Source: a virus. From it: a stretch of DNA of 64,000 nt. The stretch lies in IMG/VR virus record IMGVR_UViG_3300045988_020586. One strand, given 5' to 3'. Made by a program: the position numbers and the translations under genes. How positions within the stretch are numbered: position 1 is the stretch's first letter; the number at the start of each line of letters is the position of its first letter. Positions 1,493-64,000 of the stretch are shown piece after piece. Below the pieces are notes generated by a model. That model was not told where the DNA came from. It saw only the letters and a program-made list of their open reading frames with translations, and ran no database searches.

Positions 1493-1894
1493 TTACTTAT
1501 GTACATTAGAGGCGATTTGGATATAATCACGGAGCTCTCCCTTACGAATGGTAGAGTTGTGATTAGTGGAGTCGACCTTTTCTCCAGGTTCCATAATATA
1601 CAGAAGTGGTACATACGACGTATCTGTCTTCTTAATTATGGTGCGTTTAACAATTGCCTTTGCAGGCAACTGTTTATGATTACAAGGTACAGGCACTTTT
1701 ACCTTAACGGTATCATGCACTGTATCAGGATTAGCACGATTCATCTGACCAAACAAATGGTCCATTGGTTGCGATACAGTAGATGCTGCTACTGTTTGCA
1801 CTGTCGTCGGAAGGGGCACGTTCTTAAGATCTGCAATATTCATGCCGATCGCAAGAAATGCTGCACCTAGCAACGTTGTTACTAATTTTTTCAT
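1493..1894 (-). CDS. small exported or membrane-anchored protein (N-terminal signal peptide-like segment)
   Basis: 133-aa ORF with hydrophobic N-terminus MKKLVTTLLGAAFLAIG; TAA stop. Confidence 0.6.
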   Translation of the reverse strand: MKKLVTTLLGAAFLAIGMNIADLKNVPLPTTVQTVAASTVSQPMDHLFGQMNRANPDTVHDTVKVKVPVPCNHKQLPAKAIVKRTIIKKTDTSYVPLLYIMEPGEKVDSTNHNSTIRKGELRDYIQIASNVHK

Positions 1895-1995
1895 ACTTTG
1901 ATAGTTAAATTATTTGCGTTCACTTTGCCATTGGATATCAAAGGCTCTTCTAACGCGACCAACTAGTTGTGAACCAGCTTTCTTAATTGGCCGTA

Positions 1996-3507
1996 TTATT
2001 TTTTTACCTGAGCCTTAGCCTTACCCTTGGCTTCCTTCTTCTTGTTCTCTGCTGCCTTCTTATCAGCTGCTTCCTTAGCAGCCTTGGCAACAGCCTCTTC
2101 CTCGGCCTTGATCTCTTCGTCGGTCTTAAATGCCAAGTCGATAATATTCTCCTTAGCATAACCTACGAGCGGATCAGAAGGATTACGGAACAGATTAGAG
2201 ATGATACCTGCATACTGAGTAGCGTTATCCAGCATAGAATCAGACTTAACCTTAGCCATCATCTCTGGAACTACATCGCGATAGTATGCACGCTTAATAG
2301 AGATAACAGTCTTCTTAGCGAAGCTATTACCATCCAAGAAGTTCTTCTTCAGGTTCTCAACAAACTCACCTGGAGCTGCAATAACTGCTGCAGTAGCCTT
2401 ATCGGCAAATGCGATATTCTTGTTAGCTGTATCGATATGCGCCTGAACACGCTCCTTCTCAGGAAGCTTGTTCTCTTCCTCAATCATAATCTTGCCCTTA
2501 GAGCGAACCTCATCAGCACTGATAAGAACAAGACATCTTACAGCGTCTGCAATCTGATTATCGGTATACTTACATACACCGGTGTTCTTGTCTGTAGAAT
2601 GGTCAAGAAGCTCACAGAACGCAGATACAGGAGATCCTGACGTAGCGGTAACGTTGAAGAGGTGAGCGCCAATTCCATAAGTGAGAGTTCCGACACGACC
2701 CGTAAGGCTAACAACCTCACGAAACACGTCATGAAAATTCATGTTGTTGACACGCTCAAGATTACTCTTAGCAGAAGCAAGAGCCTTCTCAGCGTTTTCC
2801 TTGTACTTCTTGTCCTTGGTGTCCTTAAGTGTCTTCTCGGCGGACTCGATCGCACGCTTAGCTTCGATAGAGCGATATGCCTTATAGAAGTTCACGCACT
2901 GCATAATGCTGTCCATAAGCTTAGAATCACGATTCATAGCCAGGAAACCAGACAACGCCTCCTTAAGCTCTTCCTCATCCTTGATCTTTGTAGGATCAAA
3001 GACCTTACCTGCTGTTGCAGCACGAGCCTGTGCGTCTTTGTCAAGATTCTTTGCAGTCTCTTCTGAAACTTGTACAGCTGCACCTGTAACCTCAACTGCT
3101 TCAGCGTCTTCGGTCGAAGGCAAGAGCTTAGCCTCGTCAAAGTTTACACCAATCTCTTTAAGAGCTTCCTTAAGCTCTGGGAGCGCAGACTTGCGAATTA
3201 CTAACGCAAAGTCACTAGAACCATACTTAACCTCATTGCACATGCATACAGCAATGCCAAGAGCATTAATATGATTGATCTTGTCGATGGCTCCCTGCGG
3301 GATACCAGTATGCTCTGCAGCGTTCTCATCCAAGAAGAAACGATCATGAGCCATCTTCAACAAGTCTACCTGATGGTTACGGTCCATGCTTGACCCACCT
3401 GTTGTTGTGAGCATAGCTGCAGCCTCAACAGCTGCATTTACACCGTTATCACCATTGTTGTTATTCTGGGCAACCTTAACGTTACCCTTGTTCTTTTTAT
3501 TAGCCAT
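1996..3507 (-). CDS. 503-aa protein with Lys/Ala-rich basic C-terminal tail; function unknown, probably abundant
   Basis: Long intact ORF. Codon usage is visibly richer in G/C-ending codons than its neighbours and produces long antisense shadow ORFs. C-terminus KAEEEAVAKAAKEAADKKAAENKKKEAKGKAKAQVKK. Confidence 0.8.
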   Translation of the reverse strand: MANKKNKGNVKVAQNNNNGDNGVNAAVEAAAMLTTTGGSSMDRNHQVDLLKMAHDRFFLDENAAEHTGIPQGAIDKINHINALGIAVCMCNEVKYGSSDFALVIRKSALPELKEALKEIGVNFDEAKLLPSTEDAEAVEVTGAAVQVSEETAKNLDKDAQARAATAGKVFDPTKIKDEEELKEALSGFLAMNRDSKLMDSIMQCVNFYKAYRSIEAKRAIESAEKTLKDTKDKKYKENAEKALASAKSNLERVNNMNFHDVFREVVSLTGRVGTLTYGIGAHLFNVTATSGSPVSAFCELLDHSTDKNTGVCKYTDNQIADAVRCLVLISADEVRSKGKIMIEEENKLPEKERVQAHIDTANKNIAFADKATAAVIAAPGEFVENLKKNFLDGNSFAKKTVISIKRAYYRDVVPEMMAKVKSDSMLDNATQYAGIISNLFRNPSDPLVGYAKENIIDLAFKTDEEIKAEEEAVAKAAKEAADKKAAENKKKEAKGKAKAQVKK

Positions 3508-3550
3508 TTTGATAATGTTTTAAAAATGTTAAATACTAAAATTAATTAAT
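3508..3550 (-). promoter_or_regulatory. conserved start-proximal leader (minus strand ...AACATTTTTAAAACATTATCAAA-ATG)
   Basis: The plus-strand string CAT-TTTGATAAT abuts the start codon here and at 7699, 8994 and 12004. Confidence 0.4.
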
Positions 3551-3575
3551 AAAATCCTGGGCAACTAACTTAGAT

Positions 3576-3971
3576 TCAACTTGTGTCGAATATAAAGTTC
3601 GTTTTTAACCAATCTTGTGGAGGCTTAGTGAGCACTTTAATATGCCCATCTTCACTCAAGTTAAGCGCAGCGACAGTATCTGCTACAACTGTATCCTTAC
3701 CTGCTGGTTTTATCTCATTACATGTACCAGCGCCCTCTGAGGGTTCCAAAGCCTGAAGTGAGCACGTCGGTGCCAGCATGGGAGTTGTAGAAGATTTAAC
3801 TGTGCTGGCTTCACTTTTATGGTCAACAAAGGCACTGTTGACCATGCTCTTACCAGTAAAACCAAGCAAGAGACTCACAAGAATGATCCAGAACAACTTG
3901 TTACTCTTGTTGTATCTTGCGAAACCAAGAGCGATAAAGATTGAGAGAATCAATAATAAAAGTGAAGTCAT
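3576..3971 (-). CDS. membrane protein, candidate anti-sigma partner of the upstream ECF sigma factor
   Basis: 131-aa ORF with two N-terminal hydrophobic segments. It starts 4 nt after the sigma factor stop; TGA stop. Confidence 0.55.
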   Translation of the reverse strand: MTSLLLLILSIFIALGFARYNKSNKLFWIILVSLLLGFTGKSMVNSAFVDHKSEASTVKSSTTPMLAPTCSLQALEPSEGAGTCNEIKPAGKDTVVADTVAALNLSEDGHIKVLTKPPQDWLKTNFIFDTS

Positions 3972-3975
3972 TTTG

Positions 3976-4533
3976 TTAAACTTTTAAGTTATTTTTAATT
4001 TTCCTACGAGTGCGGCTTAATGCTGCTTTTATAGTGCCTGTAGGAGTTTTTAGCACTTTGCTAATTTCGTCAACTGATAGATCCTCTACGTAAAACAAAT
4101 TAAAAATCTTTTGTGTCTTTTTAGGGAGCTTTTCAAACTCCTTTAAAAGAAATTCGTGTTCAAGAAGATTGACAAGATCTTCTTCTTCCGAAGAACTAGT
4201 TAATTCTACGGGTAGTCGGCCCATATCTTCTCCTAATTCCATAGATTTCTCCTTTATCTTTCGTAAATAATCTATAGCCGTTCTATTAGCTATAATTCTC
4301 AGCCATCCGCCAAAAGACGAATAATCTGTGAATGTCGAGAGTTTCTGGTGAACCTTAAGAAATACAACATTTGTAAGATCTTTAGCTTCATCCATATCAT
4401 TCACGTAATGAAAGAGTACGTTGTCAACGAACTCCTTATAACGGTTAAACAATTTATTAAACGCAAGCTCATTTCCCTTCTGAGCTTCTTTTATGGTCTC
4501 AATCTCAGATTGAGTGATACGCTGATACTCCAT
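3976..4533 (-). CDS. ECF-type (sigma-70 family, group 4) RNA polymerase sigma factor
   Basis: 185 aa. Region-2-like FGGWLRIIANRTAIDYLRK and region-4 helix-turn-helix LSVDEISKVLKTPTGTIKAALSRTRRKI. Confidence 0.8.
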   Translation of the reverse strand: MEYQRITQSEIETIKEAQKGNELAFNKLFNRYKEFVDNVLFHYVNDMDEAKDLTNVVFLKVHQKLSTFTDYSSFGGWLRIIANRTAIDYLRKIKEKSMELGEDMGRLPVELTSSSEEEDLVNLLEHEFLLKEFEKLPKKTQKIFNLFYVEDLSVDEISKVLKTPTGTIKAALSRTRRKIKNNLKV

Positions 4534-4562
4534 ATTGTGGAGTAGGGGAGATCTCTCTCACC

Positions 4563-4979
4563 CTACCCCTGATAAAACGGAAGGTCATATACCATCTTTT
4601 GACGGTACAATGACCAAACGTTGTTGACGAAATTGTTGAAAAGAATCAATTTTAAATCCTTTCCGCCGGTCTTCATTTCTACTTTTTCAAGTAGTCCTGA
4701 ACCAATACGCATACGAGTTGTAAGTGTTTTGAACTTCATAGAATTGGTTAGGACTATTGTTTTCATAATCCAATCACCAACTCTACGCAAATGTTCATTA
4801 CAACAGTATTCGTATATACAATCTTCGTCTAGGCTATCTCCAGCACAGAATACGTGCGCTCCATCAGTGAAGCCCTTTTTAAGGCGATTGTGGAACCAGT
4901 TAATCACATCTTCTACGTTGTCACTTTCATAGCCTAACAGACTAGCTCTGTAAATTAGCATTTTAGGGAAATACTCCAT
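4563..4979 (-). CDS. hypothetical protein (terminates on TAG)
   Basis: 138-aa ORF. The stop codon is TAG (plus-strand CTA at 4563-4565). Read-through would run into the sigma gene start region. Confidence 0.6.
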   Translation of the reverse strand: MEYFPKMLIYRASLLGYESDNVEDVINWFHNRLKKGFTDGAHVFCAGDSLDEDCIYEYCCNEHLRRVGDWIMKTIVLTNSMKFKTLTTRMRIGSGLLEKVEMKTGGKDLKLILFNNFVNNVWSLYRQKMVYDLPFYQG

Positions 4980-4991
4980 TTTCTATTTTGT

Positions 4992-5513
4992 TTAATTAAA
5001 TGTTTTCTTAATAAACTTAGAAAAATCTTCAAGATATTCATCTAGAAATCCAGCTTTCTCTGACAAGAAATTATCAAATAGTGCCATATTACCGCATTTA
5101 CATGATATTTTGTAATAGTTATCTAGGAATTTATAGTTATTTTGAAACCATACAACCCAACTATTAACCCATATCCAAAATGCGTATTCTCCAGCATTGA
5201 AAGTCTTGTTAATACATTCTAAGTTTATAGAGTCTGCAAAATTAAAATTTTGAGACCCCTCGTGGATTCCAAGAGCTTTTCTTATTGACGCATTCTTTTC
5301 ATCTGTTCTAGGTCTCCCTTTTCCAGTGTTGTAGATTGCTATATTCTCTTGATATACACGGTCTATCCATCGCGTTTTAACGGCATACTTAATTCTTTCG
5401 TGTGGCTTCTTACCAATATTTGATAATCTACCAAACTCTGTACACCATTTAAACGCGAGGTCGACAACATAAGGACACCTGTCCTTTATCATCGCTTTGT
5501 ATCCCTTTGTCAT
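4992..5513 (-). CDS. hypothetical protein
   Basis: 173-aa intact ORF, TAA stop. Confidence 0.65.
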   Translation of the reverse strand: MTKGYKAMIKDRCPYVVDLAFKWCTEFGRLSNIGKKPHERIKYAVKTRWIDRVYQENIAIYNTGKGRPRTDEKNASIRKALGIHEGSQNFNFADSINLECINKTFNAGEYAFWIWVNSWVVWFQNNYKFLDNYYKISCKCGNMALFDNFLSEKAGFLDEYLEDFSKFIKKTFN

Positions 5514-5522
5514 AACTAATAG

Positions 5523-5581
5523 GAAGAAGCTGGGGAATCGAACCCCAGACCCAAACCAAAAGGCGACGGTACCAACTTCTT
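5523..5581 (-). other. tRNA-like minihelix (acceptor-like stem plus canonical T-arm, no D or anticodon arm)
   Basis: Minus strand AAGAAGT...TGGGG-TTCGATT-CCCCA-GCTTCTT-C. The 7-bp closing stem has one G-U pair, and 27 nt lie between the stem and the T-arm. Confidence 0.3.
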
Positions 5582-5609
5582 TCTTCTCTCCACTTAGGTA
5601 GGAAGCACC

Positions 5610-5642
5610 TAGACTAAACTTACGCTACGCAAGTATAGTCTA
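5610..5642 (-). terminator. long hairpin (15 bp, one mismatch), better paired on the minus-strand RNA
   Basis: TAGACTAAACTTACG-CTA-CGCAAGTATAGTCTA. The A-C mismatch on plus becomes G-U on minus. No U-run follows, so its function is uncertain. Confidence 0.35.
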
Positions 5643-5728
5643 CAATGTTATTTACATTGCCGTTTAATTTATAGTATAGTGCTTAATGTATTTATCTCCT
5701 CTGTCTGTCAAAACCAAACACGCCCGTG

Positions 5729-5751
5729 TAGGCAGTTTTACAACATGCCTA
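5729..5751. repeat. hairpin family C copy 1 (loop GTTTTACAACA)
   Basis: Stem TAGGCA/TGCCTA around loop 5735-5745. Confidence 0.5.
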
Positions 5752-5808
5752 GGTTGCCACGTTTTCGCGAACAAAAATGTGATCTGTCATACATAGACAC
5801 AAACAGAA

Positions 5809-5831
5809 TAGACAGTTTTACAACATGTCTG
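5809..5831. repeat. hairpin family C copy 2 (loop GTTTTACAACA)
   Basis: Stem TAGACA/TGTCTG around loop 5815-5825. It shows a compensatory G-C to A-T change relative to copy 1. Confidence 0.5.
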
Positions 5832-5859
5832 GGTTGTTGTTCAGATTGAACACTCTCTG

Positions 5860-6700
5860 CGGGAGGGTGTGGACGTGAGGGGAGTCGACAAAATCTTCAA
5901 GTTCATTGCAACTATTCCACTCTGCTCCACGTTATATTTATATGGAACAGATAAAGAAATATATGCAAAACAGAAAGTTAATAACTTTCGTTTGTGATTG
6001 TTGTGGAAAAGAAGCTCAAAAACCTCTTTCCGAATACAACAGAAACAAGAAACTTGGTAGGAAGAATTTTTGTAGTAGAAGTTGTGCAATTCGTTATGCT
6101 AATAAAAATAAATTACATACATTTACAGATAAATGTAGAGAACATCTTTTAAGTATTTGCAACAATCAAATAGACGAATATACCGATTTTAGATATATCC
6201 TTAGAAGTGTCTATAAAAGATTTAAAGAAGTAGATATAGATTTAGAGTATCTAAAACAACTTTGGGAGACACAAAAAGGAATTTGCCCTTATACTGGTAT
6301 AAAATTAAAGCTTCCAACATATAAAAGCCATAACTTCTATTTTGATTGTGCATCTTTAGACAGAATAGATTCTTCTAAAGGCTACGTTAAAGGAAATGTT
6401 CAATTCATATCATTACCTATAAATTATATGAAATCTACTAAATCAGATATTGAAATCAGACAATTTCTTAAACAAATTTCTTCTTACACTTCACATTTCT
6501 GCGAAGATGAGACTATCTCTTCACCTAAAGAGGTGTTGGGCGCTCGAGCTGGTAATTAAGAAGACTATACTTCTCCAGTAGTCGTTGCACTTTCTTGTGG
6601 TGTACCACAAGCTTAGCTCAGGGTTAGCATGAACAATACTAGCTTTGAGCTATTATTGTTTTTAGCCTTCCTTGAATTCACCCAATATGGGCTCGGTAAG
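5860..6700 (+). mobile_element. group I intron-like element carrying an HNH ORF; boundaries and host exons unresolved
   Basis: P7-like GAGACTA 6509-6515 and TAGTC 6579-6583, flanking hairpins CACCT-AAAG-AGGTG and AGAAG/CTTCT. P9-like CTTGTGG-TGTA-CCACAAG 6594-6611. Same layout as the two splicing-competent introns in this window. Confidence 0.35.
5942..6559 (+). CDS. HNH-family homing endonuclease
   Basis: Zn-ribbon-like CDCCGKE...CSRSC at the N-terminus. C-terminal ASLDRIDSSKGYVKGNVQFIS motif typical of phage HNH endonucleases. ATG at 5942 (the track ORF begins at 5906). No in-frame TAG. Confidence 0.75.
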   Translation: MEQIKKYMQNRKLITFVCDCCGKEAQKPLSEYNRNKKLGRKNFCSRSCAIRYANKNKLHTFTDKCREHLLSICNNQIDEYTDFRYILRSVYKRFKEVDIDLEYLKQLWETQKGICPYTGIKLKLPTYKSHNFYFDCASLDRIDSSKGYVKGNVQFISLPINYMKSTKSDIEIRQFLKQISSYTSHFCEDETISSPKEVLGARAGN

Positions 6701-6897
6701 AACCCCTGTCCAAACAGATTATTTCATACACACTGTACATTTGTTTTGTAAATGTCCTGATGATCAGTCAGAACATTTGATTTAAACCACTTTAGGTGCG
6801 TTCTAAGGCATTTTTGCGACACTTGTGGTTAATTACTCCACTCGGTGACATACTCTGCCTCAGAATGCATTAGAACATGGTTGAAAATATATAGGAA

Positions 6898-6925
6898 TCC
6901 TCATGATACGAAGATACTTAGAGGG
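6898..6925. repeat. hairpin family A copy 1 (loop core TGATACGAAGATACTT)
   Basis: Stem TCCTC/GAGGG (one G-U); 16-mer at 6904-6919. Confidence 0.55.
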
Positions 6926-7065
6926 CTATATTCAGCATTTTTGATACATTTTGCAGGGTTCGATTAACTTTCTCAGAGCAACCAAATCTCCCCGATACAA
7001 AGATACGCACAAAACATATTGTTTGATCTACTGTCCCAATTTATTGTGTGGGTTCACATCTCTTC

Positions 7066-7098
7066 TTCTCATCGTGATACGAAGATACTTGATGAGAA
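7066..7098. repeat. hairpin family A copy 2 (loop GTGATACGAAGATACTT)
   Basis: Perfect 8-bp stem TTCTCATC/GATGAGAA; 16-mer at 7075-7090. Confidence 0.65.
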
Positions 7099-7167
7099 TG
7101 TTAATTCATTCTGAGATTCCTTCACTGTCTCGTCCCTCGGGACCTCCTGTAGTACTTGAGAATCTGT

Positions 7168-7192
7168 GTACGTGATACGAAGATACTTGTAC
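7168..7192. repeat. hairpin family A copy 3 (loop GTGATACGAAGATACTT)
   Basis: 4-bp stem GTAC/GTAC; 16-mer at 7173-7188. Lies 12 nt beyond the 3' end of gene 7204-7698. Confidence 0.5.
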
Positions 7193-7203
7193 TAGAAGAA
7201 GAA

Positions 7204-7698
7204 TTAGAAGCGATCGAACTGATAGTTGGCATAATACCAGCTGTTTGGATACTTGTCGCGCAACTCACGGTCGTGCTTCTCGTACTCCTGGTTCAGTTCG
7301 GTCATCTGCTTACGCTGATCCTCATCGATCTTCTGAGACAGGTCACGGAACATATTTGGCGTGATCTTCTGGTCGTCAGGAACGACGGTACCATTCTCGT
7401 CCTTGCCCAGAAGACGGGCCAACAGCTCTGTACGCTTCTTCAGAATATCGAGGGTGATCTTTGCCTTCGCACGGTCCTTACGGACATTGAGAAGCTCCTT
7501 AATACGGAGATAGTCAGCACACTTAACGATCTCTTTGACCTGGGAGATCTTACGCTTCTCCTCATCCTGGCGGATCTCTTCTGCCGCCTTGTCTGCAATG
7601 TCGGTTACGAGGTTACCCTTAACCAACTTTTCAACAACGTTGTCTACTGACGCATTCTGCTGCTCTTTAGCAGCACCTTTTGTTTCTGCTTTTGCCAT
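7204..7698 (-). CDS. hypothetical charged coiled-coil-like protein, probably highly expressed
   Basis: 164-aa ORF. Codon bias is like 1996-3507, with an antisense shadow ORF at 7156-7650. Shares the conserved leader. Confidence 0.8.
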   Translation of the reverse strand: MAKAETKGAAKEQQNASVDNVVEKLVKGNLVTDIADKAAEEIRQDEEKRKISQVKEIVKCADYLRIKELLNVRKDRAKAKITLDILKKRTELLARLLGKDENGTVVPDDQKITPNMFRDLSQKIDEDQRKQMTELNQEYEKHDRELRDKYPNSWYYANYQFDRF

Positions 7699-7740
7699 TT
7701 TGATAATGATTTAAAATGTTTGTAAATAAAATTAATTAAC
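7699..7740 (-). promoter_or_regulatory. conserved start-proximal leader (TTTGATAAT family)
   Basis: Plus strand CAT-TTTGATAATGATTTAAAATGTTTGTAAATAAAATTAATTAA, closely similar to 3508-3550. Confidence 0.4.
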
Positions 7741-7965
7741 ACATGTTACTTCGCCCACACTCCATGATGGATTCTTAACCAATACTGCACCGTCGCTATT
7801 AACGGTGATATCACATGGAGCCTTGTGGGCGTAGTTAGCCAAATGAATGAGTGCGAATCTAGCTTTTTGAGCTTGACTCTCATCAGGGTATTTGGATTCG
7901 AATGCCAATGTCTTGACAATCTTACCCTTTACCTTCTTAGTCGTATACACTGGAATCTTCCACAT
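7732..7965 (-). CDS. hypothetical small protein
   Basis: 77-aa ORF, TAA stop. Confidence 0.55.
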   Translation of the reverse strand: MWKIPVYTTKKVKGKIVKTLAFESKYPDESQAQKARFALIHLANYAHKAPCDITVNSDGAVLVKNPSWSVGEVTCVN

Positions 7966-8079
7966 AATCGAGAGGATTTAATTTGTTCTGAAACTTGTCA
8001 CGCTTATAAGCTTTTGCTTTAGCTTCTGCATGACGTTGACGATACACTTTCTTTGTATTACGTTGTGTTCTACACATAG

Positions 8080-8499
8080 TTACATATTATCTTGAACCAT
8101 TTTGAATACACAAATAACATCGGTAGAAATACCATAAGAATCACGCATTCTCTTACTTACACCACAAGATATAATCTTGATAGCGCTTGTGAGAGACTCG
8201 TTGTTAGGCTCGTCATTTACAGCCTCGGACAATGCAAGCAACAACTTCATTTTTGAGTTGAAGAACTTGCCAAACTTCTCTTTTGCGTAGATGCACGCAG
8301 ACTCTGCGACAGACAATTCTGTAGCACTCTTGTTTTCTGCGTGGCGGATAACAATGGAACTGACTTCTCTTTCATCCATTGTAGATACATGCACATCCGT
8401 AACATCTGATTTAATAACCTTTAATTGTGAGGCTATCAACGCAACTTCAGATGGGCCCAAATCTGAACCTTTGTAAGAGATAACGATGTACTGCTTCAT
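8080..8499 (-). CDS. hypothetical protein
   Basis: 139-aa ORF, TAA stop. Confidence 0.65.
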   Translation of the reverse strand: MKQYIVISYKGSDLGPSEVALIASQLKVIKSDVTDVHVSTMDEREVSSIVIRHAENKSATELSVAESACIYAKEKFGKFFNSKMKLLLALSEAVNDEPNNESLTSAIKIISCGVSKRMRDSYGISTDVICVFKMVQDNM

Positions 8500-8501
8500 A
8501 G

Positions 8502-8993
8502 CTAATCCTCCTTTGGTATTATGTTAGTACTGGAGGACTGCACAATCTGCACATGCTTACCATCAATAATGGTATCAATTGTTTCCGTGTTAGGAATGTC
8601 TGGCGGAGTCAAGATATTGTATTGGTCTGATTTATCGGGCAAGTTCATATACACATGCTTGTTAACCTCGAACTCATGGGATATACTTCCCTTAGTTATT
8701 GGTTCCCCAGATTTCTCTAGGACCGATACAACGTCACGCATAACCTTTTCAGGTATGCTGAAGAATACAGAATCCTGATGTCTCCACTGACCTTCCGTCT
8801 TCTGATATGTCAATGCATCAGAATAGTCGGCGAATGTAGGATTGTCAATTTCCTGCATCATCTTTGATACCATGAGCGAATCATCGTGTCTGATTTCGCT
8901 CTTTGTCTGCTTCACATAGTCACATGATGACACTGCGAAAGCTACAATAAGCACGATTAAGCACATGCTAAGCTTTTCAAATAATCTCTTCAT
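8502..8993 (-). CDS. putative lipoprotein (terminates on TAG)
   Basis: 163 aa. Signal peptide with lipobox-like AVSSC. Stop is TAG (CTA at 8502-8504). Confidence 0.7.
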   Translation of the reverse strand: MKRLFEKLSMCLIVLIVAFAVSSCDYVKQTKSEIRHDDSLMVSKMMQEIDNPTFADYSDALTYQKTEGQWRHQDSVFFSIPEKVMRDVVSVLEKSGEPITKGSISHEFEVNKHVYMNLPDKSDQYNILTPPDIPNTETIDTIIDGKHVQIVQSSSTNIIPKED

Positions 8994-9035
8994 TTTGATA
9001 ATTTATTAGAGATTTAACAAATGTTAACTATCCGG
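8994..9035 (-). promoter_or_regulatory. conserved start-proximal leader (TTTGATAAT family)
   Basis: Plus strand CAT-TTTGATAATTTATTAGAGATTTAACAAATGTTAAC. Confidence 0.35.
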
Positions 9036-9064
9036 GTTTTAAAGATTCACGGAATCATCTATTG

Positions 9065-9137
9065 TGATACATATGGGACTCGAACCCATGACCCATAGAT
9101 TAAAAATCTATTGCTCTACCAACTGAGCTAATGTATC
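9065..9137 (-). tRNA. tRNA-Lys (anticodon UUU)
   Basis: Hand-folded cloverleaf: acceptor GATACAT/ATGTATC, D-arm GCTC-AGTTGGTA-GAGC, anticodon arm ATAGA-TTTTTAA-TCTAT, T-arm ATGGG-TTCGAGT-CCCAT. Confidence 0.85.
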
Positions 9138-9229
9138 AAAAGAAGGAATACACACATACACCTAGTATTCGTTTAAGTATGCCCTCCTACAGCGGTTACC
9201 AGGAACGCCGCACCACCTCTTCCTTCTTG

Positions 9230-9303
9230 TGGACCAGCTAGGGTTTGAACCTAGGACCTCCAGATTATGAGTCTGTTGCTCTAACCGACTGAGCTACAAG
9301 TCC
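9230..9303 (-). tRNA. tRNA with CAU anticodon (Met, or Ile2 if lysidine-modified)
   Basis: Acceptor GGACTTG/CTGGTCC (one mismatch, one G-U), D-arm GCTC-AGTCGGTTA-GAGC, anticodon loop CTCATAA, T-arm CTAGG-TTCAAAC-CCTAG. Confidence 0.8.
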
Positions 9304-9429
9304 AAATGGCAGTTTTTCGTCTTGTTTTTATCCCTTTCTTAGATACTGCCAAACTCTACCCAGGACGCTATAATGCGTGATTTTATGCAGACTTGAACTG
9401 CTATGTAGGCCTTTAACCTAATAAATCTC

Positions 9430-9450
9430 GGGGACAGTATAAACTGCCCC
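9430..9450 (-). terminator. hairpin downstream of gene 9463-9684
   Basis: GGGG(A)CAGT-ATAA-ACTGCCCC: 8 bp with one bulge. The U-run on the minus strand is weak. Confidence 0.35.
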
Positions 9451-9462
9451 CTTGAAATGCAA

Positions 9463-9684
9463 CTAAATATATTTTTCCTCCTCCTCTTCTATTATATCAT
9501 TCCACGTAAAGTAGAATAATAGAAGGCCAAAAATCAAAGCAACTACCAACCATATTATTATAAGACCAATAGCAAGTGTACTTATCTCTCGCACATTACC
9601 TAATGCCTTTATAAGGCTAAGTAGCGGATAAAATGAAGCTAACATAATCAATAAGCTTCCACCTAAATATATTAATCTACTCAT
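9463..9684 (-). CDS. small membrane protein (terminates on TAG)
   Basis: 73 aa with two hydrophobic segments. TAG stop (CTA 9463-9465). Read-through would continue more than 30 codons through the hairpin. Confidence 0.55.
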   Translation of the reverse strand: MSRLIYLGGSLLIMLASFYPLLSLIKALGNVREISTLAIGLIIIWLVVALIFGLLLFYFTWNDIIEEEEEKYI

Positions 9685-9949
9685 GATCTAGTAATTGTTG
9701 AGTTCTACTAAAATTGAAGTCGTGCACAAAATAACTCTCTAGACTATTGCTAAGATATTCTTTTGTAGACCCAACTTCATATTCACTTTGAGACAATATA
9801 CATACATCATCATTAAGGGCTTCATCAAACTCTAACAACGCGATATTATTATCTCTACATACTTTCTTGAGCTTTCTTACGTCGCTATGAAAACGACGCA
9901 ACTCAAGTTCAGATTCGGACATTTGTCCGTTCTTTCTACGTTTTGCCAT
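9677..9949 (-). CDS. hypothetical protein (terminates on TAG)
   Basis: 90-aa ORF; TAG stop (CTA 9677-9679). Confidence 0.6.
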   Translation of the reverse strand: MAKRRKNGQMSESELELRRFHSDVRKLKKVCRDNNIALLEFDEALNDDVCILSQSEYEVGSTKEYLSNSLESYFVHDFNFSRTQQLLDHE

Positions 9950-9951
9950 AA

Positions 9952-10146
9952 TTAAGGACTAATAAAAATTATTCCGTCTTCAATGCAAGATGGTGATTCT
10001 TTATTATCCAAATTCTTTGAGTCGTTTATTCTTGGACAAGAAAAAGGATTATTAAAGACACATCCATTGCAATTGTATTGACGTTTAGCCCTAACAATAA
10101 TGCCATTTATTTTGTAGATTCTGCCAGGACTAAGTTTTTTACTCAT
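9952..10146 (-). CDS. small Cys-rich protein
   Basis: 64 aa with CNGC...SCPR...SPSC. Confidence 0.5.
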   Translation of the reverse strand: MSKKLSPGRIYKINGIIVRAKRQYNCNGCVFNNPFSCPRINDSKNLDNKESPSCIEDGIIFISP

Positions 10147-11359: not shown

Positions 11360-11363
11360 AAGT

Positions 11364-54876: not shown

Positions 54877-55714
54877 ATCTGTTATAGCCAAAATAATGGC
54901 TGATGCAGACATGTCTGAAAAGAATATTCGGGTCACAGATATACGTGAATGGATATTCGAAGCTGTTGAAAAAATAGGTGCACCAGTATAGTATGTATAG
55001 AAGGAATCTGGAGATGATTGCGTTCCTATATTTGAGATACATGAGAACCAAATATCTATACCAGATGATCTAGAATCTCTTACGTCTGTAGCGTATTCTG
55101 TAGACGGTACAAATTGGATGTAGGCAAGGAAGGATGAAAGTTCATTTAAACTGAAAGCAAACGCTCATAAGAATCCTAGTTATACTCCACAATAGCCACC
55201 TAGATAGCCTTTAATAACACATAGATCTTAGCTGTTAGGTATTAATGGTTCAACAGCTGTATTAAACGTATTAAACAACAAAAATGTTAACGAGCCAACA
55301 TACTGGATTAAACCTGGTTGGATAGTATTTAACAAAGATAAGGGATTTGTAAAGCTTTCGTACAAAGCAATTGCTACTGATGAAAGAGGTTATCCTCTTA
55401 TCCCAGATTTAGCTTCATATCAAGAAGCTATATATTGGTACGTAATGATGAAGCTTAACTTTCCTAAGTTCTTAAAAGGTTAGCTTGGAGGTAAAGTAAG
55501 ATTTAACTAGAATACTTATTTTTACATGCAATAGCAGTGGAACTTTTATAGAAACCAAGCATATGCAGAAGCTATGATGCCTAATGAAAGTGAAATGTCT
55601 TCAATAAAGAACGAGTGGACAAAACTTATTCCAGACTGGGATTCTGATGACACGCTGTTTAATAACGTCGGAAAGAGATAGTTAAACTTTAATGATTACT
55701 ACTATGGCTACTGA
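54851..55714 (+). CDS. tail-associated protein (many in-frame TAG)
   Basis: Single frame ATG 54851 to TGA 55712-55714. An alternative start is the internal in-frame ATG beginning MADADMSEK. Confidence 0.6.
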
Positions 55715-58700
55715 TAATAATACATTCGTAAATAGCTTTGTAACAGGAATAGATAGTGATAGCTCTTTAGATAGAGTAAAAAATACCAGTTACTTAGAGG
55801 CTAAGAATATTAGGGTGCTATCATTCGATTCTACAAACCAACACGGATCCATTAAACCTATAAATGGAATAAAGCAGGTTGGATCAATAATTGACGAAAA
55901 GGTAGAAAGAATATTAGCTACAGGAGCAGTACGAGATAGAGGCGTAATTATATACATATCAGAGAAAAGAAATAAGCCAGAGTTCTGTATATCCTGCTTT
56001 GATAATAAAATTGGTCAAGATAGTGATACTGACAGCTCTGTAAAAGAAATATAGAATATATCTAATATATTTAGATCAGAACTTATAGATTGGCCTACAG
56101 ATAGATCAAAGTGGCCTAAGAATGTATCAATTACATTCAAATATGAAGGCGATGATAATATTAAATTATATGTTGCTACAGGATTCAATCCTATAATGGT
56201 TTTTAATATAGCGAAATTATACAGCTATAATAATACATCATTCAACACAGTATAGTCTTACCCAAAGATTATATTTCAGAAACCTAAGTTTGTTAAATAT
56301 GTAGATGGAACACTTAAGACATCTTACGTAAGCTACTCGTACTAGATATACAGCAATCACGGAGTATCTACAGATATATCTCCAGCTTGTTAGTCTATAC
56401 CTGTTATTAATGTACCATCAGATAGAACAGACGTATTAGGAATAAAGACTGATTAGTTTGATAAGAAAACTAACTGCGGTGTTTAGATTTTAATTAAACC
56501 AGAGACAGATTATTCTTTTCTTAACAGAATAAAGATATATAGAATCTCAGTATAGATTAATGGTTAGTTGCCAACAATTGAAGTTATATATGACTCTGCG
56601 TACGAACCAAACAGAAATGGAGATTTCTTTGTAAATGATACAGGCCAACAGGCTTTGGACACCATAACAATAGAAGAATACAACAGTATGTCTGGTGTAC
56701 ACATTATTCCAAAGGTTATAGAAAGCAAGGATAATATATTGTTTGCTGCAAACATATAGGAAAGATCAACTTTCATTGATACAGACCTGTTTAAAAAATG
56801 GGACGCTAGATCGTTTAGAGCAAATGGACAAGGATAGATAGTTCTGTAGAATACATCCGGAGATCAAAAGGTAACATATAAATGGTCTGAGCTTAACGAA
56901 TTGTCTATAAGTAACGGGTATATTGAAAGAGACTCTTATAATCCATATAATGATATAAATAAGCAATACTATCTTAGTGACTCGTACTGTATATATGACA
57001 AAGATAATTTCTATGGAGGAACTGGAGTAAACGTTTCCTGGAGATTTACAGTTACGTATATTCCTATTGATACTTGTAGTACTACTGGATCAAAGGAGAT
57101 TGGAACGATGTGGAACGTTCTCAAGGTTAAGAACACACAGGACAGGCCAACTCTTTATTTTGTTAACAAGAACGGCCTTTAGAAAGCCGACATTGAGATA
57201 TCTACAGAAGAGGGTAGAATTAATAACTCATGGGTAACAAAGTCTCTTAAACGAAACGAATTGTATAGATATGGTATTATACTATACGACTCTACAGGAA
57301 GCCCTAGCCCTGTAAAATGGATAGCAGATATTCGTACACCAAATTTATATGATAAGTATTTCAATACTTTCATATCGCATTATAACAATATGTACGATCT
57401 AGCATCAATTCCTCTTGGTGTAGCATTCAATGTTAAAAACTTACCAGAAGGATGTACTGGATATGAAATCGTAAGATGTTAGAGAAGAGAGTAGGATATA
57501 GCCTCAATAGCATAGGGTGTTATTAGTAAGCCAATAGTTGGATATAGCACACCTGAATGCCATAGACCAGATAGAACTACATACTTCCCTACAGGATTAC
57601 TTACAACCGCAATGGTGGCCCAAGGATCAGTATTTAAGTATTTTACAGAGAACTACAATCCTGCTAACGATGGTAAAGTAGATGCGATACAAGCCGCTGG
57701 TAGAGTATGCGCATCAAATTTTGGTAATACATAGATATTCTAGTTTGTATCAGCAGAAACTACTTATTAGCCAGAATCTATAAAAGTGCTTACAAATAAC
57801 AAAGATTTCAAGTTAGAGCCACTTAGGTATATTTTTGGTCAAAGCGGAAAGTTCTAGAAAGAGAAGCATATTGGAAATAAATATTTCATGAGCCCCGGTA
57901 TTTCAAATACTAACATATATACAAAACCAGATTAGACTAATGATGGTAAATCCTACGAATGGAAGTACTATACAAATAAGAGCGGTGGTGGATATACTGA
58001 TTATCAATACAAGTCTTCTCCGTATATTCTCAAGATGCTTACAGCGCATTTGAAAACTATGTACTATAAAGCTGATGTATCAGATAAAATGTGGACATGT
58101 TTGAGTCCTGGTAAGATAGGTGAGAATATTAAGTATTCTGGATCTGATATGAACAAAATAGATGATAAGGTTTTTGCTTATATAAAACTGTATGAACAGG
58201 GATGTTCATTAAGAACAAGGGTATGCGGAATAACTGATCATTTTATTGATTATGGTCCAAGCTCTATGGATGAGCATATTGATAACAATACAAAACTTGC
58301 CGATATCGATGACATATAGATAGCTTCTGAGTTAAAATGGAATGAAGTAATTAAAAGAACATTCCTGGAAAAAGGCTCAAATTCAGATGTTAAAGAGAAT
58401 GGTAAATGGTGGCCAACAATAGAATACAACAACCACATAGATTCTGTAGGTAAATACTAGTTCTGTAATACTGTATTTTATGGATGTGATGGAGCTGTTA
58501 TAGATAGAGGAGGAATTGAAGGAGATGACAACACAACAATTGCGCACGATATGGTAGATGGCGCAGATTAGGGTGATGTTATAGGAGATGATAATCCTGG
58601 ATATATCCTAAGATTCCCATTTAGTACCGGAGGTAGATGCGCTTTGTTATCAATGAAAAACGATTGCGCAAATATGTTGTTCAATAGTATTATTGGAGCA

Positions 58701-60350
58701 TAGTCTTATTATAAAAACGTTGATAATAATCTATAGGAATTCAATTCTTTTTCTAGCTACTACAGGGTCAACATTAATAGTATTCCAGGAACTGTGTTGT
58801 GTAATATAAGAAAAACAGTAACTCCATATGACGGATGTACAGAAAAGTCAATAACTGCTAGCACATATAGATCTGATGGCTAGTTCTTTACAAAAGCAAA
58901 TGAGTGGAACGCTGTATTCGATGGGGATACTTACATATCTGTACTTGATTACACATCAATGCATAAAGCTACTTGCAACTTCTTGAAAGGAAAGGATGAT
59001 AGGGCTAGTAGAGATTATAGTGATTATAGATCACCTTCAATGATGCTTGGATATGCTATACCGGTAGAATCTAATATAAATTGTAGATTTGCATATGGTT
59101 ACGAATTCTCAAAGAACTCTACAAATGAAGGTGCATCTATGATTTAGATTGAGCCTGCTAATGTAAACAATATGTATACTCAAACTGAGCCAGAATACCT
59201 GTTTAACACAACATATGCTGCAGAAAATAACAGTAGAATTCATGCTGCTTTTGATACTACGAATATAGAAGACTTCAATAAGAATGTTGATTATATGTGT
59301 AGATATTCTATGCTAAAAGAAAACAATGAGCACATTGATAGTTGGACTAAGTTCTAGAGCTCAAATTACCTTGACGTAGATAGTAAGTATGGCAAAATAA
59401 CAGGTTTGAGAACATATAAGCAATGGCTTGTATTCTGGCAGTAGATGGCTACAGGTTTGTTATCTGTTAATGAAAGAGCTATAACTGATAGCATAAATGG
59501 TACATAGTTAATACTTGGTACTGGTGGAGTACTTAGCAGATACGACTACCTTGATCAAACAGCAGGTATGCATAATGATGAGCTATGTGACACTTAGTCT
59601 AGCTCTACACTATATTGGTTTGATCATCATAACTAGGAGATTAGATCATTTGATGGATAGGGCGTATATCCTTTAAGTAAGGGGTCACAAGCTTAGAATA
59701 TATTATACAAGTATTAGGACAAAGATTCTGATCCGACATTGTTCTTCGATAATAGAAACAACGAGGTTATATGTAAGGTAATTGGAGAAGATTCATTTGT
59801 GTATAATGAGGCCGCAAAAGCATTCCCTTCAATTTATACAATACCGTTTGATGGAGCTATATAGTTTAGTAATAAAACTCTGTTAGTTAAGAATATAAAC
59901 GGAGATATAAAAATTGCATAGTGGGATGCAGACAATAAGTATACAACATCTTGGGAAGAAAAGATATTACCAACATATATTAAGTATGTTGTTAATAGCA
60001 TTCCTACAGCAACTAAAGTGTTTGATAACCAAGAAATAATTACACCTCAAGACGAATTCTAGTATATTGATATATAGGGCGATAAAAAAGATAGAGATTC
60101 TTATTTTGGATTATCTAAAGAGTATAAATGGTCTACTGATTCTGGAATGAAATCAGAAGATGATCTGCATGGAAAGATAACTATAAGAGAGCATAATTAC
60201 AGGTATGCTATTCCTAGAGATAATAGAGCTAATGCATACGGCTCAAGAATGAGGGGTAAATATCTTGTATGCGAAATGTAGGATAATAAACCTAATACAA
60301 ACGTTGCTATATAGTATATACTAACTAAATTTAGAGCATCATGGATTTAA
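55692..60350 (+). CDS. very large tail protein, 1552 aa (muzzle or tail-stabilisation-like position)
   Basis: Track ORFs 55692-56054, 56568-56759, 56901-57182, 57261-57482, 58035-58319, 58959-59147 and 59172-59357 all share one frame linked only by TAG. TAA 60348-60350. Confidence 0.75.
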
Positions 60351-61222: not shown

Positions 61223-62814
61223 TAAAATAGAAAGTATGGACTCCTAATGGTTATTAGGTTGGTCCAACTAACAGTATGGTAGGTAAAGGTGAGTCTATTA
61301 TAGACTACACTAATGGTACCGGTACACTTGTAACTAAGGGAAAGGTTGGTGTAGATAATCAGCCTAGCTCTGTTAGACAAGACGATAGAAACGTAATAGC
61401 TGGAAACGATATAGACTGGACTAACGGTATGAAGTTCTCGCAATAGATAGCGCCACTTACAGCTAGATTACAAATGTATAACGATATTGAAAAGAAGGCA
61501 AATAAAAAGCCAAGCATGAGCTCGTTGTCAAAGTAGACAATGCAGCTTCAAAGTGCCCAATTAGAGCGCGCTAAAGCCCCTATTTTATAGGCTATGAAGA
61601 ATATTACAGATAGGTAGGAGAAATAGCATTAGATCGAAGATTATGCAGCTTAGTTTAAAGCTAATTGTGGTAAAGATAGATTCGCTAATGGTAAGAATAT
61701 GTGGGAAGGAGTAAAAGACTCTTTTAACAACTGGATTAAATCCGGAAAAGGAAAAGTATCTAATGCTGTACTTGATACAGGATATATGATTCCAGCTGTT
61801 CTTGAAAAGCAGATGCTTAATCATTGGATGAAAGAAAATCCATTAATGCCAAATATTTATGCTGCAAATAGATATAGTTAGTCTGCATTACAAACACTTA
61901 ATAGATTAAGAGTTAATCCTTACAATCAGTTGTAGAGTCTTAATCAAAACGACAGAGCAGCATACTACAGAATGCAGTAGGATGGTGGATATACTGGAGG
62001 ATAGAGATAGGCTGGTAGAGTAGCTCTCGCTTTAGGTAATGCTAGAAATGTAGCCGACGTTCTTAATAATGCTGATTTACAAAATAATAAGTATAGATAG
62101 GATTGGGCTACTGCAGCGTTGACTGAAGGTAATCAAGATGCTGCTAGAAGACAGGCTGCCAACCAGTACGCATGGGAAGCTTATAATAGAGCACATGGCG
62201 CTAAGACTAAAGGAATTGAAACACACTTATCAAATCTCGGTCTTATTGGTCAGAAATGGTTAGCTCAGCGCATTAAGAATAAGCAATATGGAGATGTGCT
62301 TGATATGTATCAACAAGATCTCGATAATAAAAAGGATGCATTAAAAGCAATATATGGTATAGGTGCAGATGGTACAAAAAGTGCAGTAGCAAGCGGATCT
62401 GTAAATAATAATACTACAACTGGAACTACAGGTGGCAATCTTAATATACTTAATCAATATTATCGTAACGCACCATTAGGGGATGTATTTTCGTTATAGA
62501 ATCCATACAGAATTCCATAGACTGATATCTCTATGCAAAGAATACCTAAGGGAAAATATTGGATGACACCAGATCAGATGCCATTAAAGAGGTATAATTC
62601 TGATTAGGTAAGGCAAGCTATATCTAAGGCGCAAAACACTAGATAGTGGGCCTAGAATGTACTTAATCAGAATGAGATAAACATGGGAACTATAGGAGAC
62701 GGTAATATATACAGAGATGCTAGTATTCATTTTATTGAGCCAAATAATTATACTTGGTAGTTACAAAATAAGTATCCGCTTGCTAAGGTAACATATATAC
62801 CAAGAATTGGATAA
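61219..62814 (+). CDS. hypothetical virion protein, 531 aa (many in-frame TAG)
   Basis: ATGA overlap start; track ORFs 61699-61881 and 62119-62499 in the same frame; TAA 62812-62814. Confidence 0.6.
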
Positions 62815-62832
62815 TCATATAAATAATAACAG

Positions 62833-64000
62833 ATGATAGGAATGTATGACGAACCAGTAGCGGTACCTATAATCGACTTACTGGATAGCAGCATGATGTC
62901 ATAGTACATTAGTGCTGCGAGGGAACAATATAACTAGGCTGTACAGGACCAAAAAGAGTTTGCTAAGGAATTTGGTGAACTCTATGGTCCTAACGCTAAC
63001 ATTAACAAGCAATTCTACGATGATACTAGAGGGGCTGTAAATAAGGGCCTTGATTATCTGTATTAGAATGGCATAGATCCTCTTAGATCTGCAGAAGGTA
63101 GAGCGTATATAGCTAAGATTATCAGAGAGAGACCATATGCTGAAATAGCTAATCTTAAAGCTTAGAATGAGTCTATGAAGACTTATTAGAAGTATAGAGC
63201 AGAAGCTATGCGTAACGGTACATATGATCCAGACTTTGAGAAGTTTGTATTAGGCGGTAAGACATTGGAGTCTTGGGATCCTTCAACAGATGGTATGTGG
63301 ACAAGAGAAGCGCCTTCTAAATATTCTAGCCTTAAGGATTGGACAAGCAATTTGTTTGACAATATGTAGCTTGAGTACGATGATGAAGCAACTAAGAAAG
63401 CTGGGGGAATGTATCAAGTCTATTCAAAATCTCCAAAGAAGATGTAGCAGATTCTTGATGCGAACATAAAAGATATGGCAAAATCTGATTTAGGAAGATA
63501 TTATCTTGATATGTATGGAGGTGATATAGATGCACTTAAGGCCGATATCATTAATCGTAATAGAGAGTATACGCAGATTGATAGACGACCAGATCAAGTT
63601 TAGATACATCTTAATGATCAGATATTCTAGGCTGCAGAAGCTGCTAAACAGAGAGCATTCCAGCATAGAGAAAACGAGCTTAATAGAAAGAATTAGCGTG
63701 ATATTGCTGCAGCTAAAAGTGCTGATGGCTCTGGTGCAAATGGACAACAATCTCCATTATAGTGGTCTACTAGATCTGAAAGAACATCATAGAGATAGAA
63801 GGATAATCAAGTAATGACAAACTTATTTGATACAATGCAGAGAGTATCTAAATATTGGAAAGATCGAGCTAATAATACAAAGCTTTCTGCTGCATAGAGA
63901 AAATAGGGAAGAGATCATGCTGCATGGTGGAATAATGCCATTAAGTAGGCTGAAGTTAATCCTAATTCTCTTATGAAGAATGGTCTTGTACAGATTGATG
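62833..64000 (+). CDS. hypothetical virion protein, 3'-truncated by window end (many in-frame TAG)
   Basis: ATG 62833; frame stays open apart from TAG to position 64000. Confidence 0.6.

Follow-up and report, generated by a model that had tools for sequence, protein, structure and literature searches.

A predicted amber suppressor tRNA gene, split by a group-I-like intron, in a crAss-like phage with two readings of TAG

The DNA considered here is a 64,000-nucleotide stretch of IMG/VR virus record IMGVR_UViG_3300045988_020586, referred to below as the window. The codon TAG appears to be read as a stop in some of its genes and as an amino acid in others, and the candidate decoder is a transfer RNA (tRNA) gene, tRNA(CUA), whose two halves are separated by an intron. 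Over 13.5 kb the window is 100% identical to the ENA contig ERZ27272202:k141_148590 (102,289 bp); it is taken as part of a crAss-like genome of about 102 kb with two TAG readings. No identical contig was found in IMG/VR, where the closest is 3300045988_013227 (98.5-99.7% identity); another, 3300045988_076858, is 84-93% identical. PHROG profile matches in the window include phrog_6681, phrog_6547 and phrog_11589 (crAss-type TerL, portal and major head protein, MCP). The TerL-portal DNA is best matched by the uncultured phages cr7_1 and cr124_1 (about 90% identity), and cr7_1 is collinear with the window at 72-95% nucleotide identity, with the same gene order. Judged by these comparisons, the window comes from a gut crAss-like phage of the Crassvirales, Suoliviridae (delta group), Oafivirinae, with cr7_1 (Burzaovirus coli, NC_055895.1) as its nearest relative. 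For comparison of the tRNA locus, 25 related contigs were retrieved by an exact 32-mer from the tRNA-like element at 20346-20419; related strains co-occur in numbers within the single metagenome 3300045988.

The suppressor locus belongs to a small tRNA array and lies where the TAG-free rightward genes give way to the recoded module, sharing their orientation. It contains the following features:

20346-20419, plus strand: tRNA-like element (Rfam tRNA, 37.9 bits), which anchors the tRNA array
20886-20957, plus strand: initiator-like tRNA(CAU) with a C1xA72 mismatch, the array member upstream of the suppressor
21110-21144, plus strand: predicted suppressor exon 1, TGCCCATTCGCGTACCAGCTAGCGCACCGGGCTCT, nucleotides 1-35
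21145-22130, plus strand: intervening sequence of 986 nt, group-I-like, with a terminal G at 22130
21149-21156 with 21969-21976, plus strand: long-range helix that closes the loop holding the open reading frame (ORF), with covariation
21175-22077, plus strand: HNH homing-endonuclease ORF of 300 amino acids (aa), with 0 in-frame TAG and a TGA stop (Pfam HNH E = 8e-5, above the cut-off)
22021-22027 with 22088-22094, plus strand: P3 of a hand-built model
from 22078 with 22118-22122, plus strand: P7, with a bulged A, forming a P3/P7 pseudoknot
22095-22110, plus strand: P8 of the hand-built model
22131-22167, plus strand: predicted suppressor exon 2, AACCCCGGGGGAGTGGGGGCAGCACCTACATGGGCGA, which starts with A36 A37 C38

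With ARAGORN and Rfam, the tRNAs found are Lys(UUU), Met(CAU), the initiator-like tRNA(CAU) and the one odd tRNA-like element, none with a CUA anticodon. ARAGORN returned no CUA tRNA, or only noise, in the window when run with default settings, with introns allowed and with lowered thresholds. Rfam at gathering and at permissive thresholds gave no further tRNA in the whole window or in sub-regions, and a search for CUA-presenting hairpins in the non-coding regions yielded weak candidates only, none in a tRNA context. The original prediction, based on the same four tRNA-like genes, had placed the suppressor elsewhere in the genome or in the host. Its count is right for the four detectable genes, but a fifth, intron-split tRNA(CUA) is predicted at 21110-22167, within the window itself. 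Standard tRNA finders miss this gene because of the 986-nt intron and the non-canonical D and T loops.

Exon 1 holds the 5' strand of the acceptor, the D arm, the 5' strand of the anticodon stem and C32 U33 C34 U35. Exon 2 adds, after its first three nucleotides, the 3' strand of the anticodon stem, the variable loop, the T arm, the 3' strand of the acceptor and a discriminator A. In the predicted spliced product, 21144 is joined to 22131 (...GGGCUCU/AACCCCGG...), and the joined 72-mer folds as an exact cloverleaf with stems of 7/4/5/5 bp and the 7-nt anticodon loop CUCUAAC. The same topology arises in none of 3000 shuffles (0/3000), and among all partners within 21145-23500 exon 1 is complemented only by those starting at 22129-22131. 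The same split gene is found in the relatives L081, L089 and L100. Between these and the window, the tRNA differs at three base-paired acceptor positions (1:72, 2:71, still pairable) and at three unpaired ones (D loop, position 26, variable loop). From this pattern we identify 21110-22167 as a putative phage tRNA(CUA) gene, split between U35 and A36; the function of its non-canonical elbow is assumed from conservation.

Related genomes carry the gene both with and without the intron. At the syntenic site in cr7_1, between a 107-aa gene and the dUTPase, ARAGORN finds an intact, canonical tRNA(CUA). At the locus in the 25 related contigs, ARAGORN calls a CUA tRNA in 16 and none in 9. The conserved 3' half of the suppressor, searched for across IMG/VR, is present in 5 of these 9: in one case at another copy of the locus, which is divergent (L115), and in four cases several hundred bases further downstream. 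The intron seen in the window also lies within canonical-loop tRNAs in L112, L115, L116 and L152; L154 has the same core and a canonical 3' half, and its exon 1 was not located. When L112, L115 and L152 are spliced in silico, ARAGORN calls tRNA(cta) in each, and the spliced L152 equals the intron-less tRNA of L088 but for one D-loop nucleotide, a match that fixes the junction at CUCU/AAC. In L076, L078 and L086 an uninterrupted CUA tRNA of unusual form (C33, T loop AUGGACA) is followed by a small HNH gene and then by a remnant 3' half of canonical type; L083 and L097 share this HNH-ORF end and remnant, their 5' part not being found. In L077 the intron at this site is of a different kind. All nine relatives in which no CUA tRNA was called (9/9) thus carry a hidden suppressor gene or part of one: six have intron-split or unusual full-length genes, in one only exon 1 was seen and in two only the 3' half. 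No tRNA was found in the rest of the relatives' genomes, and six have none in the region that matches the unseen 30 kb or so of the window's genome. The contig 3300045988_076858 mentioned above (L004 and L006; 162 kb) contains two versions of the tRNA locus, L081 and L115, which are 93% and 83% identical to the window, and probably represents two strains joined in assembly, as a chimera or a concatenation.

The proposed compact 3' core of the intron consists of a hairpin, P3, P4, P6 with a GAAA loop, P7 and P8. When this model is laid over 8 homologous introns, 99.7% of cells are paired and 5 pairs show compensatory changes, as against 32-48% paired and 0 compensatory changes in slid controls. 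The long-range helix covaries as well, being UCCAAUGA/UCAUUGGA in the window, UCCAAUAAC/GUUAUUGGA in L112 and 11 bp in L120. A U precedes the 5' splice site in all homologues, and the terminal G is present in the window-type, L112-type, L152 and L154 variants (the 3' end of the L120 type was not located); the splice-site U, the terminal G and the covarying core are conserved in at least three intron variants. The arrangement ACAGACUAAACG...AUAGUCG is reminiscent of P7 in known group I introns. These features suggest an intron of group-I-like type, which would be removed by splicing.

Several other tRNA-like elements were considered as suppressors and rejected. In the element at 20346-20419, which is conserved in 25/25 relatives, the anticodon stem is mismatched and the loop reads GAUAUAAA; this odd loop of 6 or 8 nt and the lack of CUA disqualify the element. 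The tRNA at 20886-20957 is of initiator type and orthologous to Met tRNAs that co-exist with CUA tRNAs in relatives, and its ends, CGCG...GCAAC, are common to all array Met tRNAs of the relatives. Array tRNAs of relatives with 6- or 8-nt anticodon loops (AACAGA, UUAAAG) were likewise set aside. Outside the window, a tRNA-like cloverleaf on the ENA contig (L003 18189-18262) ends two bases before the start codon of the DNA polymerase. This element is also present in L038, L045, L063, L068, L071 and L072, so that some relatives only have it, as a 176-nt insertion; it has a purine at position 33 and a loop of UAGAUAA, CAGACUG or AGGAUAAA. The copy on the ENA contig (loop UAGAUAA) was rejected as a suppressor.

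Downstream of the suppressor locus, the rightward genes require TAG as a sense codon:

23756-64000, plus strand: late module of 34 contiguous genes with short gaps or overlaps, which tile only with TAG as sense
28635-31415, plus strand: late gene in a single frame with 17 TAG, stop TAA
31927-33990, plus strand: TerL in a single frame with 12 TAG, stop TAA; crAss-type PHROG match
33994-37554, plus strand: portal with intein, in a single frame with 22 TAG, stop TAA
37081-37150, plus strand: poly-Gln run with 3 TAG at the portal C-terminus, M-TAG-TRQ-TAG-QM-TAG-QQQQEAEAQQQQQLQQ
55692-60350, plus strand: giant virion protein of 1552 aa in a single frame with 41 TAG, stop TAA

The late genes contain 244 in-frame TAG in 13,019 codons and 0 in-frame TAA or TGA, and TAG makes up 38% of all their Gln-type codons. 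Their stops are 25 TAA, 8 TGA and 0 TAG. Stop-to-stop open frames that reach 150 codons cover 14.6 kb of the plus strand when TAG is a stop and 44.3 kb when it counts as sense; on the minus strand the increase is small, and counting TGA or TAA as sense instead has no comparable effect. TerL rebuilt across its 12 TAGs covers positions 78-746 of a 758-position PHROG profile, and such a nearly end-to-end match means that the TAG-separated fragments are not independent proteins. The portal matches its PHROG profile on both flanks of the intein, and the MCP profile is matched too; a piece of the giant virion protein used as query in a protein search returned one fragment. The module holds structural, packaging and lysis genes and needs TAG as sense throughout. 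In this module the original prediction is borne out: the four structural genes that it named (28635-31415, 31927-33990, 33994-37554 and 55692-60350) are continuous through TAG and end on TAA, no reconstructed late gene ends on TAG, and the check that it proposed, comparing the TAG-sense translation with profiles, gives the TerL, portal and MCP matches just described. It had also pointed to TAGs within a poly-Gln run of the portal, in agreement with the translation of 37066-37170, QKLKDM-TAG-TRQ-TAG-QM-TAG-QQQQEAEAQQQQQLQQ.

The amino acid inserted at TAG can be deduced from the codons that relatives have at the same positions. For close relatives (the IMG/VR loci and cr7_1), 134 TAG sites of the window have aligned codons. 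The non-TAG partners at these sites are CAG 75 times and CAA 40 times, with any other codon at most 9 times; by site, the partner is CAG at 37, CAA at 19 and any other codon at 3 or fewer. The reverse comparison has the same result. Since CAA is two substitutions away from TAG, mutational proximity does not account for the CAG and CAA partners. A more distant test used alignments of TerL and portal with seven distant Suoliviridae and cr7_1, counting only residues that come from ordinary sense codons. Here Q occupies 44% of TAG columns as against a background of 4.7%, and E, D, A, K and R come next. Most of the distant relatives compared are recoded themselves; cr10_1 is not. Both comparisons indicate that TAG is Gln in the late module, the assignment put forward in the original prediction.

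Certain late genes contain no TAG at all (41538-43951, 44798-45514, 47037-48161, 52438-52863 and 54409-54876, all plus strand). In two of these, the gene for the major head protein and 47037-48161, Gln is encoded almost only by CAG (11 and 13 CAG, 0 CAA). Given these two TAG-free genes, TAG decoding could be costly for the most highly expressed proteins. The insertion in the portal gene (about 35500-36480, plus strand) is intein-like: it separates two stretches of the portal profile and has a weak match to an intein-bearing terminase family, and a LAGLIDADG domain is annotated in a relative's record. It includes five TAG codons and is hence recoded as well.

Outside the late module, TAG is mostly absent from within genes and sometimes ends them:

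1493-14682, minus strand: genes without in-frame TAG, five of which end on TAG
3976-4533: ECF-type sigma factor, among the genes without internal TAG
4563-4979, minus strand: TAG stop, kept as TAG in 17/17 relatives
8502-8993, minus strand: TAG stop in the context TAG-CTN-TGA, with TGA one codon on
9463-9684, minus strand: TAG stop, with TAA at the same position in 4 relatives
9677-9949, minus strand: TAG stop, with TGA at the same position in 4 relatives
14164-14682, minus strand: TAG stop, with TAA at the same position in 2 relatives
15462-15791, minus strand: gene of 109 aa with three sense TAGs
17395-17865, minus strand: gene of 156 aa with six sense TAGs, a homologue of cr7_1 gp71
19419-19649, plus strand: small gene (76 aa, three sense TAGs; cr7_1 gp75) in the rightward block 18561-20335, which is TAG-free apart from it

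Two TAG-free sets were scored, one of 27 minus-strand ORFs (3,706 codons) and one of seven plus-strand genes at 18561-23357 (1,180 codons); the TAG-bearing genes 15462-15791, 17395-17865 and 19419-19649 stand outside them. Together the scored sets have 0 in-frame TAG in 4,886 codons; the frequency seen in late genes would predict about 92. As listed, six of the 27 minus-strand ORFs end on TAG, and the stop at 15516 is refuted. Reading through the other five stops adds tails of 23-52 codons in four cases and a single codon in one. The tail of 4563-4979 shows 15 non-synonymous and 1 synonymous differences; it is without a coding signature and enters the next gene. All five (4563-4979, 8502-8993, 9463-9684, 9677-9949 and 14164-14682) look like genuine stops when compared across relatives. 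Among the window proteins scanned, a subset of the total, none showed a release-factor domain.

For the sixth, the relative L084 has GAG, AAG and GAG (E, K, E) at the three TAGs and a C-terminal INRLKIANKETR identical to that of the window, with the same stop, abutting the next gene. These codons and the identical tail show that the gene is 15462-15791, read through TAG at 15516. For 17395-17865, 13 relatives give 477 synonymous and 152 non-synonymous codon differences (142/54/533 by codon position); its TAGs align with TAG, CAA and GAA, and no relative has an in-frame TAA or TGA. For 19419-19649 the differences are 240 synonymous and 97 non-synonymous (64/44/264 by codon position). At least two minus-strand genes, together with one gene in the TAG-free plus-strand block, use sense TAG. 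Other minus-strand ORFs containing TAG (16298-16510, 18236-18463, 9328-9825 and 13165-13395) were rejected as genes, being without a coding signature. The original prediction had divided the two regimes by strand and had counted six TAG-terminated minus-strand genes. The division by strand fails on 17395-17865, 15462-15791 and 19419-19649, and the count stands for five genes and falls for 15516-15791. Its broader proposal, that TAG is a stop in most genes outside the late module, agrees with the TAA or TGA of relatives at three stops and with the absence of internal TAG from 4,886 codons.

Two alternatives concern the code itself. If TAG encoded an amino acid other than Gln, such as Glu, Lys, Tyr or pyrrolysine, one could cite the E, K and E opposite the three TAGs of 15462-15791 in the sole available relative, the GAA opposite TAG at some sites of 17395-17865, and the label Pyl that CUA tRNAs receive by ARAGORN convention. 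We give this almost no credence: CAA, two substitutions off TAG, ranks second after CAG; Q is nine-fold enriched at TAG columns, and the residues that follow it (E, D, A, K and R) are the usual replacement partners of Gln; the suppressor has U1, which is typical of tRNA-Gln; and no Pyl genes were found in Pfam and PHROG scans, which took in part of the window proteins. Gln at TAG has also been shown by proteomics in crAss-like phages (Peters et al. 2022, PMC9523058). The other alternative is a uniform code 15, in which TAG would be sense genome-wide, all the "TAG-terminated" genes would be read through, and there would be no two regimes. RefSeq and the ENA gene caller do treat TAG as sense throughout the relatives (cr7_1 gp57 and the ENA call have 162 aa, for example, as against 138 aa for the window gene), and the sense TAG at 15516 and in three genes outside the late module would fit. 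A uniform code is nevertheless very improbable, as relatives have TAA or TGA exactly at three of the five remaining TAG stops, a TGA stands one codon behind the stop of 8502-8993, the tail gained by reading through 4563 lacks a coding signature and runs into the next gene, and internal TAG is missing from 4,886 codons where about 92 are expected.

A further alternative accepts the recoding and holds that the split tRNA(CUA) is dead, disrupted by a homing-endonuclease element, and that a suppressor acts in trans, coming from the host, from a relative infecting the same cell or from the 30 kb of genome beyond the window. A number of results weigh on this side and against a working split gene. 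The D loop ACCAGCUA and the T loop GGCAGCA are without the conserved G18 G19 and T54-Psi55-C56, and ARAGORN makes no call on the window tRNA, even spliced. The folding energy of the spliced tRNA is not better than that of shuffles (z = -0.32); this value is uninformative, which is why topology was tested, and support comes from topology, not energy. Rfam Intron_gpI (RF00028) has no match to the tRNA intron (21100-22180, E <= 10), nor does it detect the L077 intron, which is of a second type at this site; it does find three other introns of the window, and the 830-nt ORF loop may be what defeats the model here. A convincing P1 helix or internal guide sequence was looked for in the window intron and not found, a guide sequence (GGAGC) being clear only in the other intron type of L077. 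With no Rfam match and no P1, we call the intron group-I-like only. In addition, the early and late timing of the modules is taken from gene content, a second intact suppressor may conceivably lie in the 30 kb or so of genome beyond the window, the many related strains in metagenome 3300045988 make complementation conceivable, and host-encoded suppressors have been proposed for such cases (PMC7886860). Against a dead gene, both halves keep all the cloverleaf stems, and the four genomes that share the split gene vary only at pairable or unpaired positions. The splice-site U, terminal G and covarying core persist across three or more intron variants, L112, L115 and L116 have the identical architecture with canonical tRNA loops, and spliced alleles match intron-less ones. 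The relatives' genomes hold no tRNA elsewhere, and with at least 244 essential TAG codons, dependence on chance complementation is unlikely. On balance we regard a dead gene as unlikely and consider it probable that this phage, with its two readings of TAG, decodes the codon with a tRNA(CUA) split by a 986-nt, HNH-bearing, group-I-like intron.

With the split gene as decoder, expression might proceed as follows. As most leftward genes and the first rightward genes are TAG-free, and some are TAG-ended, the unmodified host apparatus would suffice to translate them. Rightward transcription from the divergent region at about 18.3-18.5 kb would then pass through TAG-free genes, the tRNA array with the split suppressor, the dUTPase and the recoded module. 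Mature suppressor would form only after removal of the intron, most likely by self-splicing, and would probably be charged by the host glutaminyl-tRNA synthetase. Once accumulated, it would allow read-through of TAG-containing messages, from the late module as well as from the three small genes with sense TAG, and some read-through would then also occur at the TAG stops of earlier genes. The intron could in this way be an extra layer of timing control over the code switch. That splicing gates the switch, through an HNH-bearing group I intron that excises itself, and that intron-split or otherwise non-canonical suppressor genes are a general cause for the seeming lack of a suppressor in a large share of recoded phages, is a more tentative proposal, about which we are rather doubtful.

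Dual reading of TAG is already known for delta-group crAss-like phages, to which the window adds another member. For this group, TAG-to-Gln recoding of late genes, dense introns and inteins, and an imperfect match between recoding and a detectable suppressor have been described (Yutin et al. 2021, PMC7886860), and there is proteomic proof of code 15 in crAss-like phages (PMC9523058). A temporal model of recoding has been proposed in a survey in which a suppressor was detectable in only 40% of TAG-recoded genomes (Borges et al., 10.1101/2021.08.26.457843). The late-gene recoding in the window agrees with all three, as the original prediction anticipated; the window departs from the published delta-group pattern in that three small genes not belonging to the late module also have sense TAGs. 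Authors have invoked host suppressors or "extremely divergent" tRNAs for recoded phages without a detectable one, and undetectable suppressors were still listed as unexplained in 2025 (PMC12386605). Standard tools would place the window in the same category (PMC7886860; 10.1101/2021.08.26.457843; PMC12386605), although here the cause would be an intron-split gene with a non-canonical elbow, not the absence of a gene. With the suppressor undetectable in 60% of TAG-recoded genomes in one survey, the window would provide a concrete case of a gene that is hidden and present, and a search strategy: to scan the surroundings of the early/late boundary for endonuclease genes with half-tRNAs on either side. 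Annotation with a uniform code 15, for its part, over-extends early genes that genuinely end on TAG.

The likeness to cr7_1 extends to TAG in the TerL, portal and tail genes, to TAG-free replication and early genes, to introns and inteins in core genes, and to a tRNA(CUA) at the same locus beside the dUTPase. The suppressor of cr7_1 is uninterrupted and canonical, whereas that of the window is interrupted by the 986-nt intron with its HNH ORF and is unusual in its D and T loops. Lak megaphages, which are also TAG-recoded gut phages, have tRNAs with intervening sequences, predicted with eukaryote settings and described as enigmatic (Devoto et al. 2019, PMC6784885); the text of that paper reports neither group I introns with endonuclease genes nor introns in a suppressor tRNA. 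The literature searched, which was incomplete in coverage, yielded no account of a phage suppressor tRNA split by an intron, so that an earlier report is possible.

Group I introns in the anticodon loop are known from bacterial tRNAs, namely cyanobacterial and plastid tRNA-Leu(UAA), cyanobacterial tRNA-fMet and Azoarcus tRNA-Ile; the intron of Synechocystis tRNA-fMet carries the homing endonuclease I-Ssp6803I. We take the window intron to be like these in its anticodon-loop site, the U before the 5' splice site, the terminal G, the compact core with a P3/P7 pseudoknot and the endonuclease ORF in a peripheral loop, and its motif GACUA(A/G)ACG presumably resembles the P7 region of Azoarcus and Tetrahymena. 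The window differs from them in its host gene, a phage amber suppressor, in the insertion between positions 35 and 36, in an ORF that is of HNH type and overlaps the 5' part of the core, and in being without an Rfam match.

Further split genes and RNA elements are present in the window:

5963-6559, plus strand: ORF adjoined by the group I intron on the other strand
6489-6781, minus strand: group I intron (Rfam, 81 bits)
13281-13362, minus strand: RAGATH-1 hammerhead ribozyme (Rfam, 71.9 bits, above threshold)
22195-22467, plus strand: N-terminal part of a split dUTPase (Pfam dUTPase positions 2-71)
22530-23357, plus strand: second HNH ORF, within the dUTPase
23077-23318, plus strand: group I intron core, within the dUTPase (Rfam, 65 bits)
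about 23376-23728, plus strand: C-terminal part of the dUTPase, which aligns with the cr7_1 dUTPase
41538-43951, plus strand: split gene for the major head protein; 41538-41939 matches PHROG positions 5-121, and the part from 43034 matches 200-492
42043-42798, plus strand: HNH endonuclease ORF within the MCP gene, with two TAGs

The missing part of MCP may lie in the frame that is open from 42791 (a GTG-initiated ORF, 42791-43951), and a weak Rfam group I match is found inside the split gene at 42497-42742. A T-arm-like hairpin, ACACGGGTTCGAATCCCGTGT, lies at 40255-40290 (plus strand), directly after the stop of 38754-40250, with no other tRNA features nearby. In the region 5520-6800 of the minus strand, an element at about 5530-5720, adjacent to the group I intron, resembles a transfer-messenger RNA (tmRNA): it has a T arm, the 3' end of an acceptor and a frame that looks like a tag, GNVNNIVDYTCVA, the final residue of which is followed by a stop. 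ARAGORN predicts a tmRNA at this place in many relatives, and the RefSeq annotation of cr7_1 includes one, in keeping with a putative phage tmRNA. The hammerhead ribozyme is surrounded by a 1.5-kb gene-free stretch (12681-14164), also conserved in cr7_1. At 6900-7200 (minus strand), upstream of the non-coding RNA region, the motif AAGTATCTTCGTATCA occurs in four copies, one of them degenerate, which may be phage promoters or binding sites.

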